From Candidatus Nanohaloarchaea archaeon (GTDB lineage: Archaea; Nanohalarchaeota; Nanosalinia; Nanosalinales; Nanosalinaceae), in the NCBI GenBank assembly GCA_042217695.1, contig JBDGSE010000014.1, forward strand, positions 1 through 49,296: a stretch of 49,296 nt of DNA, in the 5' to 3' direction. How positions within the stretch are numbered: position 1 is the first letter of the stretch; every line of letters starts with the position of its first letter. Positions 15,736-37,262 of the stretch are shown one piece after another. A model generated the notes under the pieces. It saw nothing but the letters and a program-made list of their open reading frames with translations, was not told where the DNA came from and searched no databases. The translations under genes were made by a program, and so were the position numbers.

Positions 15736-15935
15736 GCCTCGGTGGCTCAGCCTGGCTAGAGCGGTCCCCTCGTAACTGGTTACGCTCAGTTCCTACGAAA
15801 ACCGGAAAACGGTTTTCTAGGGCAGAAGACCTCTATGAGGTCTTCAAGACACCATGCGAACAGCATGGCCTTCAGTTAAAGATCAGGGCTTTGCGAGACA
15901 GGGACAGGTCGCGGGTTCAAATCCCGCCCGGGGCT
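15736..15935 (+). tRNA. tRNA-Thr(CGU) with a 125-nt intron at canonical position 37/38 (intron 15775-15899)
   Basis: Acceptor GCCTCGG/CCGGGGC plus U73; D arm GCTC/GAGC; anticodon stem GTCCC/GGGAC with loop CT-CGT-AA; T arm GCGGG-TTCAAAT-CCCGC; BHB central helix CTCG/CGAG with TAA and ACA bulges; followed by T6. Confidence 0.93.
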
Positions 15936-35543: not shown

Positions 35544-36020
35544 ATGTCGGAGCACCCTTTCGTGGACGAGGAGGCCAGGAAGTCGACAACGATTGTAACC
35601 AAACACTCCATCGCGATACCCGAGGACAAGCAGAAATACAAGCGGAGTGAACGCGCCTGGAACTGGGAGAAGATAGTGGATCTTTTCTTCCCTAGAGAAC
35701 AGTCTCCGAAGAGGAACAAGTACGCCAAGATATTTCTGCGCGAGCTGAAGGAGGAGGGTTCAATCGACTCCCAGAAGCTGAACCGCTTCGATGAATGGGG
35801 TCACGAGAAGGGAAAGAGCAACCTGAAGAACTTCATACTCCCAAAGTTAAGGCGGCTGGGAGTCATCAAATACGAGTACCTGGAATACAGAGACCGTAGA
35901 GAAGGCTCTCAGGGCCGCGAAAAGGTCATAAAGCCAGCGCGCTCGTTCACCTCGATACTGGATTCTATGGCGAACGGCTGGGCCACCTATGAATCGGCCG
36001 CGTTCGAAAACACCGATTAG
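35544..36020 (+). CDS. Hypothetical basic protein, probable winged-helix nucleic-acid binder
   Basis: K/R-rich in an acidic proteome; NFILPKLRRLGVI helix-wing pattern. Confidence 0.75.
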   Translation: MSEHPFVDEEARKSTTIVTKHSIAIPEDKQKYKRSERAWNWEKIVDLFFPREQSPKRNKYAKIFLRELKEEGSIDSQKLNRFDEWGHEKGKSNLKNFILPKLRRLGVIKYEYLEYRDRREGSQGREKVIKPARSFTSILDSMANGWATYESAAFENTD

Positions 36021-36032
36021 GCCTTCTTTAGC

Positions 36033-36158
36033 TTATAACGTGGTTGCTACTGTTACAGATGCGTCCGAGTGGACTTCTGTCTCCTCGCGCAGCTCCTCCT
36101 CGAACTGCGCCCGGAGTTCGGTTTCGAAGTCTCGTGTGTTCGCGTCGATTGTAGGCAC
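36033..36158 (-). CDS. 41-codon acidic micro-ORF downstream of the large ncRNA; not in the ORF track
   Basis: VPTIDANTRDFETELRAQFEEELREETEVHSDASVTVATTL, with genome-typical GAG/GAC codons. Confidence 0.55.
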   Translation of the reverse strand: MPTIDANTRDFETELRAQFEEELREETEVHSDASVTVATTL

Positions 36159-36182
36159 CTCTTTTTCGTTTTTCCAGGATTA

Positions 36183-36475
36183 AGGGAGGGCGGTAAAAGT
36201 TCCGGAGGCGACCCCCACCTTGCAAGCAGGGATCGCCCTAGAAAGCTCCATTCCTGTGTTCCACAGAGGCAGGAGAACGGAAGCTTTTCTGTTGTCGCCT
36301 TGAGTTTCGCGGTCGGCACCTGACTCCTGTCGGAGCCAAGGCTTCATCCCGCTTTACTCTGCCAGGAAGTTGATAATGGAGAACTTGGCCTTGGCCTGGG
36401 CGTGTTTATAGTGGCGTCTCACTGGGTCCACGGACACGTTCCCTGTGAGCCATCGCATTATACCCGAGGCCATCT
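36183..36475 (-). ncRNA. Unclassified ~300-nt structured RNA with a K-turn
   Basis: TATA-like TTAAAAA at 36502-36508; five stem-loop domains; GNRA loops; K-turn at 36309-36352. Confidence 0.68.
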
Positions 36476-36518
36476 TCTTAGAACCTACTTTGCATCAGTT
36501 CTTTTTAAGTCTGTTCCT

Positions 36519-37262
36519 TCACTGTCTGTACGGCTCGAACACTCTGCCTGTAAGCTGGTTATGGACGATCTCCATAAGTTCCTGGAGGTTCCGGGCGTCG
36601 TACTGGTTGTAGCGCACCAGCCTGTCCAGTGCCGATTCGTCGTTGTCCTCCTCGTACCGTTTCCATAACCGGACCGCCTCCCGGCCGTCTATGTCCTCCA
36701 GTTCTCTCTCGACGTCTAGCTGTTTTTCAATGCTCTTCAGTCCACCGGTGTATCCCAGCCTCTTGAAAAGGTACATCAGGTCGATGTGCGGGATCTCGAT
36801 GTCAATCCCCAGGTTCTTCTCCAGGAACGGCTGGTCGAAACGTTTGCCGTTGAAGGACACGAGGACGTTCGACCGGTGGAGCTCCTCCTCCAGGTTTTCC
36901 CGCGTCAGATCCTCGCCCCTCACAAGCGTCTTTGACTCTCCTTTCCTGTGGAAACTGACCGTCGTAACCCTGTTTTTCTCCGGAGAGAGTCCCGTGGTCT
37001 CTATATCGAAGAAGTTCGCCGAGTCCTCGAAGTTGCGGTAGAGCCGCCAGATCTCTTTATTCGGCAGTTTGTCGCCGAAAAACACGCTGTTGCCGACTTC
37101 GAGGTTCTTCCGGGCCTTCTCTATGAACTGGCGGATCTTCTCCTTCTTCCGTACATCTGAGCTGGAGATATGGTCCCAGTGGGTTACTCCGGACTCCCAT
37201 AGCTTCTTTTCGGTTTTCTCTCCTACTCCCGGCGCCAGAATAAAGCTGTTTTGGATACGCAT
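36519..37262 (-). CDS. YprB-like RNase H-fold (DEDD) exonuclease
   Basis: FFDIETTG, SFNGKRFD, HIDL, GGLKSIE, YNQYD. Confidence 0.92.
   Translation of the reverse strand: MRIQNSFILAPGVGEKTEKKLWESGVTHWDHISSSDVRKKEKIRQFIEKARKNLEVGNSVFFGDKLPNKEIWRLYRNFEDSANFFDIETTGLSPEKNRVTTVSFHRKGESKTLVRGEDLTRENLEEELHRSNVLVSFNGKRFDQPFLEKNLGIDIEIPHIDLMYLFKRLGYTGGLKSIEKQLDVERELEDIDGREAVRLWKRYEEDNDESALDRLVRYNQYDARNLQELMEIVHNQLTGRVFEPYRQ

Follow-up and report, generated by a model that had tools for sequence, protein, structure and literature searches.

What is encoded on the minus strand between positions 36183 and 36475 of contig JBDGSE010000014.1, a stretch of 49,296 nucleotides (nt) from a nanohaloarchaeal genome that we refer to as the window? 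A preliminary description, made from the letters of the window, had proposed an unclassified structured RNA with a canonical kink-turn (K-turn), which could be either a new ribonucleoprotein (RNP) RNA or a large cis-regulatory leader. We located the candidate RNA at these coordinates and on this strand, and an unclassified structured RNA it is, with support from covariation and without an Rfam family. Of the two roles, we favour the cis-regulatory one and rank the stand-alone RNP RNA below it: the element would be a cis-acting translated leader of a small downstream gene, ORF2, in which the ribosome and the protein L7Ae compete, a reading to which we give a probability of roughly 45%. The 5′ domain, which had been taken as purely non-coding, turned out to hold an always-open reading frame (ORF) of 35–42 codons that ends 1 nt before the K-turn.

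We collected homologues with an exact sequence pattern, which occurs at 29 loci in 185,579 species genomes and at 24 loci in metagenomes. The titles of the former name Nanohaloarchaea, Nanohalarchaeota, Nanohalobium or Nanosalina in 23 cases, 'uncultured archaeon' in five and Asbonarchaeaceae in one; the records titled Nanohaloarchaea, Nanosalina or Nanohalobium bear out the proposed DPANN origin. After removal of 17 duplicates from a set of 53 sequences, 36 distinct ones remained (alignment A1).

In a first alignment, a conserved ATGGCC follows the expected transcription start by a few bases and its frame reaches the aligned stop in 24 of 24 sequences. In A1 this frame is open in all 36 sequences, compared to one and none for the frames +1 and +2, respectively. 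The resulting ORF1 (36354–36473, minus strand; 39 codons plus TAA in the window) ranges in length from 35 to 42 codons among these sequences, with eight different values that are all in frame, and terminates with TAA (25 sequences), TAG (6) or TGA (5). Another 16 distinct sequences, obtained from covariance-model matches and metagenomes, all have ORF1 open too, for a total of 52 of 52; this further set leaves out loci L089 and L098, in which the anchor pattern was unmatched. The search pattern permitted TGG at the position of the stop codon, and none of the 53 pattern matches examined carries it.

The mean pairwise identity of ORF1 by codon position is 0.74/0.65/0.66. The third positions are not relaxed (0.66 versus 0.65 for the second). 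By its frame ORF1 is probably a translated ORF, yet by this codon pattern not an ordinary protein gene. Its peptide motifs (MAL, WLTGNM, DLVR, KAKA, FSIIN, LAE) each lie on a conserved RNA strand, and the homologous peptides are 35–63% identical to the window copy. We found no family for the peptide in Pfam or NCBIfam, and nine relatives in a large protein database, two called 'hypothetical protein' and seven without a name.

Upstream of ORF1, directly after the stop of an exonuclease gene (36519), lies a TATA-like promoter box, CTTAAAAAG (36501–36509, minus strand). The TTAAAAA after which the preliminary description had placed the element is part of this box, which is kept as TTWWAA in 32 of 36 homologues, 30–40 nt 5′ of the conserved ATG. 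From this distance we infer that the mRNA is leaderless or nearly so, with ORF1 starting at or within a few bases of the transcript 5′ end.

Folded on its own, a 311-nt stretch has a z-score of −2.02, with 2 of 100 shuffles equally good. A single-sequence fold is thus modestly better than chance, and we therefore judged the structure from comparative data, using five measures on A1 in comparison to 500 shuffles. The shuffle control ignores phylogeny, for which reason the covariation counts are supportive rather than proof. The full model is 89.0% paired, compared to 80.3 ± 0.4% for the shuffles and 35–49% with slid partners, and none of the 500 shuffles matches it on any measure.

Two of the helices are formed by the codons of ORF1. 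P1 (36393–36471, minus strand; 36463–36471 with 36393–36401) begins with the G of the AUG and has P2 inside it. It corresponds to the closing helix GGCCUCGGG/CCCAGGCC of the preliminary description and is 88.3% paired, with 4 of 8 pairs doubly changed; in L015, for example, the leucine codon UUG is replaced by CUA and its partner CAA by UAG. The P2 hairpin (36418–36449, minus strand; 36441–36449 with 36418–36426, CUCACAGGG/CCCAGUGAG) contains the CUCAC/GUGAG pairing noted earlier and is 87.0% paired, with 6 of 9 pairs doubly changed. Taken alone, P1 and P2 have 10 of 17 pairs doubly changed, and they exceed all 500 shuffles on each of the five measures.

The K-turn hairpin (36309–36352, minus strand) starts 1 nt past the ORF1 stop, and the intervening base is A in 35 of 36 sequences. 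It consists of the C-stem GCGG/CCGC, the bulge GAU, the tandem G·A and A·G pairs, and a long non-canonical stem with a one-base bulge and a GACA cap; C-stem, 3-nt bulge and tandem G·A/A·G are thus all present at the sequence level. The pairs 1b:1n (G:A), 2b:2n (A:G) and −1b:−1n (G:C) are invariant in 36 of 36 sequences. The bulge is GAU in 31 and AAU in 5, 4b:4n is G:C in 34 and G:U in 2, and 3b:3n is A:C in 19, C:C in 10 and other combinations in 7. The C-stem is 100% paired, with 1 of 4 pairs doubly changed (C-G to U·G to U-A), and the apical stem 92%, with 7 of 7; a GAA after the C-stem is kept in 33 of 36. The K-turn is therefore canonical, as had been proposed.

According to Huang, Ashraf and Lilley (2019; PMC6298567), a G:C pair at −1b:−1n is rare and blocks ion-induced folding, C at 3b or G at 3n favours it, and all K-turns analysed there fold upon L7Ae binding. 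Because −1b:−1n is G:C throughout A1, folding of the K-turn described here should, under this rule, depend on a protein of the L7Ae family. The prediction rests on the −1b:−1n rule, since 3b = C or 3n = G is present in 15 of the 36 sequences and neither in the other 21. The genome of the window encodes an L7Ae (99.1 bits; gene at G000:C35:12010-12285), and L7Ae would be expected to bind at this site. Through the size of its mRNA channel, a bound ribosome covers mRNA beyond the A-site codon. As the stop codon lies one base before the C-stem, a ribosome terminating on ORF1 would therefore have unwound the 5′ strand of the K-turn.

The part of the element 3′ of the K-turn comprises an A-rich single-stranded linker, GAAACUCAAGGCGACAAC (36291–36308, minus strand), which is unpaired in the minimum free energy (MFE) folds of 35 of 35 homologues, and two further arms. 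P3 (36240–36290, minus strand), previously described as a long AGAAAAGCU arm, has in every homologue a stem that varies in sequence and length and surrounds a conserved C/U-rich block (CCUGCCUCUGUGGAAC in the window). A hairpin or arm is present here in 35 of 35 MFE folds, with 31 distinct 5′ strands; the alignment is unreliable in P3, and a crude tracing of helices found one of at least 6 bp around the anchor in 21 of 35 sequences. The last arm, P4 (36206–36238, minus strand), is a hairpin with a nearly invariant, G·U-rich top (UGCUU-GCA-AGGUG) and is supported as well (96.9% paired, with 11 of 15 pairs doubly changed). Several positions of its top are mostly G·U or U·G, and the pair at columns 367/384 is G·U in 35 of 35 sequences; the transcribed strand is therefore the minus strand, as the G-U pairs had been taken to favour.

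P4 is followed by CCGGAAC and YUWU (36195–36205, minus strand; UUUU in the window), which are conserved in A1. They are candidates for a weak terminator, for an internal promoter resembling a B recognition element and TATA box (BRE/TATA) or for the 3′ strand of a junction helix; the latter, UUCCUGG (36362–36368) with CCGGAA, is 67% paired and has 2 of 6 pairs doubly changed, in one sequence each.

Other pairings of the preliminary description did not hold up. The inner UGGC/GCCA pairing is, by inspection of A1, specific to the window genome, the GCCA-AGUU/AACU-UGGC hairpin does not stand out from shuffles (191/500 and 257/500), and the AAUGGAG that was to serve as its pseudoknot or switch partner sits in a stretch that A1 shows to be non-conserved. 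For the long-range AAGUUCU/GGAACUU helix, 60% of the pairs are kept, which is less than in the shuffles, and the GNRA caps are not conserved, the K-turn hairpin having 29 different loops among 36 sequences. A second register of P1 with the repeated CCAAGG, which we also tried, is no better than shuffles.

Downstream of the folded region follows ORF2 (36033–36158, minus strand), which encodes a small acidic protein of the MDANTRDFEAEL...VVTATAL type. Its length is 37–39 amino acids (aa). With identities of 0.63/0.79/0.44 at the three codon positions it shows the pattern typical of coding sequence, by which ORF2 is a genuine small protein gene. We found no family for it in Pfam or NCBIfam. The large protein database holds three relatives, one of which is the window copy, named 'hypothetical protein' or without a name.

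The aligned core of ORF2 (36036–36149) begins with ATC in the window, and an in-frame GTG is located at 36156–36158, inside a Shine-Dalgarno-like GAGGUG (36156–36161, minus strand); in the homologues, GGUG or GAGG lies 8–13 nt before the aligned start. The aligned start codons are ATG 18, ATC 7, ATT 5 and ATA 3 times (n = 33). An in-frame GTG is present 9 nt upstream in 13 of the 15 non-ATG sequences and missing from two. These two, L023 and L045, lack any in-frame ATG, GTG or TTG upstream of the ORF2 start position. The start codons suggest that translation of ORF2 begins non-canonically at AUH, or else at a GUG that is part of the GGUG motif.

Searches with a profile hidden Markov model of ORF2 also gave weak second matches in several genomes, with E-values from 2.6e-6 to 0.013, which mostly cover the N-terminal part and fall into other small frames (for example G007:C3:16116-16178, G068:C3:4309-4395, G003:C14:20865-20945 and G000:C14:5191-5223). 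These may be paralogous small proteins.

How widely and how regularly do the parts occur together? We sampled 70 genomes of the families f1 to f5, a set that is identical at the order and phylum level; the genome of the window (G000) has 757 kb in 44 contigs and is 82.7% complete. With a 321-nt query, blastn found one main match in 22 of 24 other f1 genomes and in one of seven f3 genomes, with 67–84% identity across genera, and no matches in families f2, f4 and f5. R1, a covariance model of the K-turn module (72 positions, 15 pairs), has exactly one match each in G000 (82.5 bits for the window copy) and in 45 of 49 other f1 genomes; completeness is 72–85% for the four f1 genomes that it misses. 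It has none in 10 genomes of f2, f4 and f5, and a match in one of 10 f3 genomes (G039); this copy resembles those of f1, sits on a 2.5-kb contig and may have been assigned to the wrong bin.

The ORF2 profile likewise finds its target in 45 of 49 f1 genomes. R1 and ORF2 co-occur in these 45, the same remaining four lack both, and G000 has both. The search for homologues, synteny and covariation that the preliminary description had called for thus yielded a single-copy conserved unit in f1, in which P1, P2, the K-turn and P4 covary. Two near-exact fragment matches elsewhere, G000:C12:17286-17308 (23 nt, 96%) and G003:C14:8957-8983 (27 nt, 93%), may be due to chance or a shared motif.

Family f3 has a diverged version. 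In G031 and G035, the same parts follow the orthologous exonuclease gene in the same order, with little sequence identity to f1: a TATA box, a 29-codon ORF with a 9-bp helix equivalent to P2, UAA, a single A and a short K-turn (CAGGG-GAU-GA...GA-CCCUG), then two hairpins, of which one has a C-rich loop and abuts GAGGUG, and finally a relative of ORF2, MCFECHTFEKEL.... In these two genomes we found no TATA-like element before ORF2. Both R1 and the ORF2 profile miss the f3 copies in G031 and G035, and the true distribution is therefore wider than their counts. Other genes follow the exonuclease gene in G041 and G042 (f3) and at the two readable f4 loci (G027 and G040). The f3 leaders of genera g27 and g23 (L103, L104, L119) have a UUAGCGC motif in common, located in a hairpin that separates the upstream ORF from ORF2, and the f3 relatives of ORF2 begin with MCxxC, where the f1 proteins have no cysteine.

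In the reading we prefer, the stretch first flagged is the front part of one promoter-driven transcript that would act as both mRNA and folded RNA, and we infer that the ORF1 region and ORF2 are co-transcribed. To arrive at the ORF1 stop, a ribosome would have to melt P1, P2 and the 5′ strand of the K-turn, and L7Ae bound to the K-turn would oppose its passage. Depending on how ORF1 translation and protein binding balance each other, the leader would differ in fold, lifetime or read-through, and its state would in turn set the amount of ORF2 protein.

Two aspects of this design are unusual. The codons of an always-open mini-ORF also spell out covarying helices, and a K-turn predicted to be protein-dependent lies exactly one base past the stop codon, a spacing kept in a second family with little shared sequence. 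As the element is present in single copy in 45 of 49 genomes of a genome-reduced symbiont family, an important function can be argued for. The competition between ribosome and L7Ae is a testable model and would provide a natural K-turn switch for synthetic biology; moreover, the analysis draws attention to three products that lack an annotation or a name, namely the peptide from ORF1, the protein from ORF2 and the winged helix-turn-helix (wHTH) protein next to them. We also considered whether there is a class of 'translated K-turn RNAs' common to DPANN archaea, in which a ribosome terminating on a leaderless mini-ORF would compete with L7Ae for the same dozen nucleotides. We regard this generalization as unlikely; if true, it would constitute a ribosome-coupled protein/RNA switch, tying the expression of a small regulator (ORF2) to the pool of free L7Ae and to the status of ribosome and small RNP assembly.

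To our knowledge, few cis-regulatory RNAs are known in archaea, namely a handful of riboswitches and the L7Ae-binding K-turn in the l7ae and nop5 leaders, and a control element of the leader-peptide type, as known from ermC and trp, would be the first described there. Bacterial dual-function RNAs, such as SgrS/SgrT, RNAIII/hld and SR1/SR1P, combine a peptide-coding sequence with functional RNA structure. The present element resembles them in that one transcript carries a small peptide and a conserved RNA structure, but here the same bases serve for coding and for structure, there is no known base-pairing target, and lineage and motifs differ. Literature searches that joined Nanohaloarchaea with the kink-turn found no paper in the library searched, and among the papers listed for K-turn, leaderless small-ORF or stop-codon elements in archaea and for non-coding RNA or RNase P in Nanohaloarchaeota, none describes such an element.

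Among described systems, the closest are the L7Ae K-turn leaders and the leaderless attenuators of mycobacteria (10.1101/834739). The former are L7Ae-binding K-turns in archaeal mRNAs, found in the 5′ untranslated region of l7ae and in the nop5-fibrillarin transcript (Daume et al. 2017, PMC5539422; PMC6298567). As in these leaders, the K-turn belongs to an mRNA and not to a stable RNP RNA, its core is predicted not to fold without protein, and the genome encodes L7Ae. In contrast to them, the K-turn described here (36309–36352) does not overlap the ribosome-binding site; it lies 147 nt before the Shine-Dalgarno sequence of ORF2, whose start is roughly 150 nt (f3) to more than 300 nt (f1) downstream. 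It is further distinguished by its place after the stop of an upstream ORF and within a conserved fold of about 300 nt, by L7Ae binding being predicted, and by a downstream gene that is neither l7ae nor that of a small RNP protein.

In mycobacteria, leaderless short ORFs are reported to attenuate downstream genes (10.1101/834739). The likeness is that a polycistronic transcript would begin with a short ORF and that translating this ORF would remodel the RNA behind it. In contrast to the mycobacterial case, the present element is archaeal, has no evident run of regulatory codons, forms covarying helices from the codons of its ORF and carries a K-turn, predicted to be protein-dependent, that abuts the stop; we identified no terminator/antiterminator pair in it.

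The best surviving alternative, which we hold to be somewhat unlikely, is a stand-alone stable RNP RNA of about 280–300 nt that extends from ORF1 to P4, binds L7Ae and acts in trans or titrates L7Ae, with ORF2 as a separate gene and the 5′ frame translated as a second function or as a folding aid. The conservation of the nucleotide sequence (67–84% across genera by blastn) is like that of structural RNAs, and the constrained third codon positions of ORF1 fit as well. Several observations, moreover, weigh against a cis-acting leader. The spacer between P4 and the ribosome-binding site of ORF2 is A+C-rich, of variable length (44–87 nt from CCGGAA to the ORF2 start, median 53) and looks unstructured, which is unusual for a leader that occludes a site. 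Sequestration of the Shine-Dalgarno sequence was not found: duplexes between it and the C/U-rich region of P3 have a mean z-score of −0.54 against shuffled targets, with 15% of sequences below −1.64, and pairing of the P3 region with the GGCAGAGUAAAG stretch has no support either (mean z-score −0.22). In addition, the third f3 genome, G029, which represents a third genus, has its ORF2 relative behind an 18-codon ORF with no recognisable K-turn.

The last point on this side concerns promoters. The CCGGAAC-YUWU after P4 resembles the BRE/TATA-like promoter region of ORF1, GGAAnnC-TTWWAA, and ORF2 could therefore have a weak promoter of its own. Of the 13 sequences with an in-frame GTG, 12 have it 34–42 nt after CCGGAAC-YUWU (the exception is L008), a distance similar to that between the TATA box and the ATG of ORF1 (30–40 nt). 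CCGGAAC-YUWU may thus act as an internal promoter, if a weak one, from which a leaderless ORF2 is transcribed. A strong TATA box is rare in the spacers, of which 1 in 35 contains TTWWAW. It is the unstructured spacer, the failed sequestration test and the BRE/TATA-like motif that keep the stand-alone RNA alive. Against it stands that ORF2 is always located downstream in the same orientation, both being present in 45 of 49 f1 genomes and neither in the other four. The two f3 genomes, with a hairpin that abuts the Shine-Dalgarno sequence and without a TATA-like element before ORF2, also speak against it, as do the lack of a conserved U-tract terminator after P4 and of any known target in trans.

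An ordinary bicistronic mRNA for two small proteins appears quite unlikely. Here the ORF1 peptide would be functional and the RNA structure would only stabilise the message or set the ratio of the products. That both frames are conserved open is in agreement with this, and the ORF1 peptide has recurring motifs, is basic within an acidic gene neighbourhood and has its nine database relatives. However, each conserved peptide motif coincides with a conserved RNA strand, the identities of 0.74/0.65/0.66 are not the pattern of a protein under purifying selection, and the peptides are merely 35–63% identical, compared to an invariant K-turn core and P4 top. Stabilisation would also leave unexplained why the K-turn is placed exactly 1 nt after the stop in two families.

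For the element to belong to a known RNA family, a match in Rfam would be expected. Rfam 15 gave nothing relevant for the element when the whole window was searched at gathering thresholds. With permissive filters and a limit of E ≤ 10, the element region yielded only four matches, all at chance level (E 3.4–7.8). Archaeal RNase P RNA (RF00373) and signal recognition particle (SRP) RNA (RF01857) are like the element in their size of about 300 nt, archaeal host and K-turn; neither covariance model matches the region, however, be it that of RNase P RNA, with a P1–P4 core and the conserved regions CR-I to CR-V, or that of SRP RNA, with the motifs of helices 6 and 8, and the 5′ third of the element is an open reading frame. 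The SRP RNA of the window genome is located on a different contig (C3:10610-10882, 136.8 bits). For RNase P we compared five complete relatives, in which the RNase P RNA and the element occupy separate loci: 914713 and 35044 in G017, 267694 and 434575 in G016, 127157 and 961333 in G001, 3405 and 91303 in G009, and 814096 and 42304 in G019. Since SRP RNA lies elsewhere in the genome and RNase P RNA elsewhere in the relatives, we rejected both identities, in agreement with the preliminary description, which had found their hallmarks missing and proposed these same checks.

In the window genome itself, a search with RNaseP_arch found nothing significant, the best match having E = 3.48 on another contig; its RNase P RNA gene is probably unassembled or too diverged. 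Across 41 sampled genomes, including G000 without a match, RNaseP_arch reached E ≤ 1 in 26 and passed the Rfam cut-off in only seven, and the RNase P RNAs of the family are therefore diverged.

Box C/D small RNAs have the C box RUGAUGA and the D box CUGA, together with C′/D′ boxes and guide regions. The element has GGGAUGA and CCGA at the corresponding positions and neither a second box pair nor guide regions, and the Rfam C/D families gave merely matches with E = 6.2 and 7.8, both outside the K-turn. H/ACA small RNAs have a lower stem with a pseudouridylation pocket below the K-turn and an ACA box 3′ of the hairpin; here the lower stem, GAGU/ACUC, is absent from many homologues, inspection of the alignment showed no conserved ACA, and Rfam gave no match. 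A riboswitch would have a conserved ligand pocket and an expression platform beside the gene it regulates; Rfam riboswitch families do not match at the element either, no candidate ligand emerged, and the downstream gene gives no metabolic hint. Notwithstanding the presence of a K-turn and the lack of a significant RNaseP_arch match in an 82.7%-complete genome, a diverged RNase P, SRP, C/D or H/ACA guide RNA or K-turn riboswitch is therefore extremely improbable, given the Rfam result, the separate loci, the missing boxes, guides, lower stem and ACA, and a 5′ third that is coding.

The neighbouring genes had been suggested to form one system with the RNA. For ORF2 this agrees with its co-occurrence with the RNA in f1. 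The upstream gene (36519–37262, minus strand) encodes a YprB-like exonuclease with RNase H fold (PF13482, E 1.2e-42); it is a conserved neighbour in families f1 and f3, but nothing links it functionally to the element. On the other side lies a convergent gene (35544–36020, plus strand) for a basic protein of 158 aa with a predicted wHTH. It is adjacent in the 24 loci examined, all but one of which are from f1, but was not found in five genomes of f3, f4 and f5. The convergent protein of f3 has no detectable similarity to it (E = 8.6) and no Pfam match.

The 158-aa protein is 78–88% identical across genera and has no match in Pfam or NCBIfam. AlphaFold2 predicts a winged helix and a C-terminal helix (mean predicted local distance difference test score, pLDDT, 69.5), and the best matches in PDB are winged helices of the LmrR/PadR, RTP and TFIIE types (E 0.02–0.2). 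Its first 38 residues (HPFVDEEARKSSTIVTKHSIAIPED.QKYK; 35544–35660) are near-invariant across genera and predicted to be disordered (pLDDT 36–43); they look like a partner-binding segment.

At a distance from these genes, the window contains a tRNA gene (15736–15935, plus strand; 41.8 bits) in which about 127 nt are inserted behind the anticodon-loop position; the insert is presumably an archaeal intron of unusual length.

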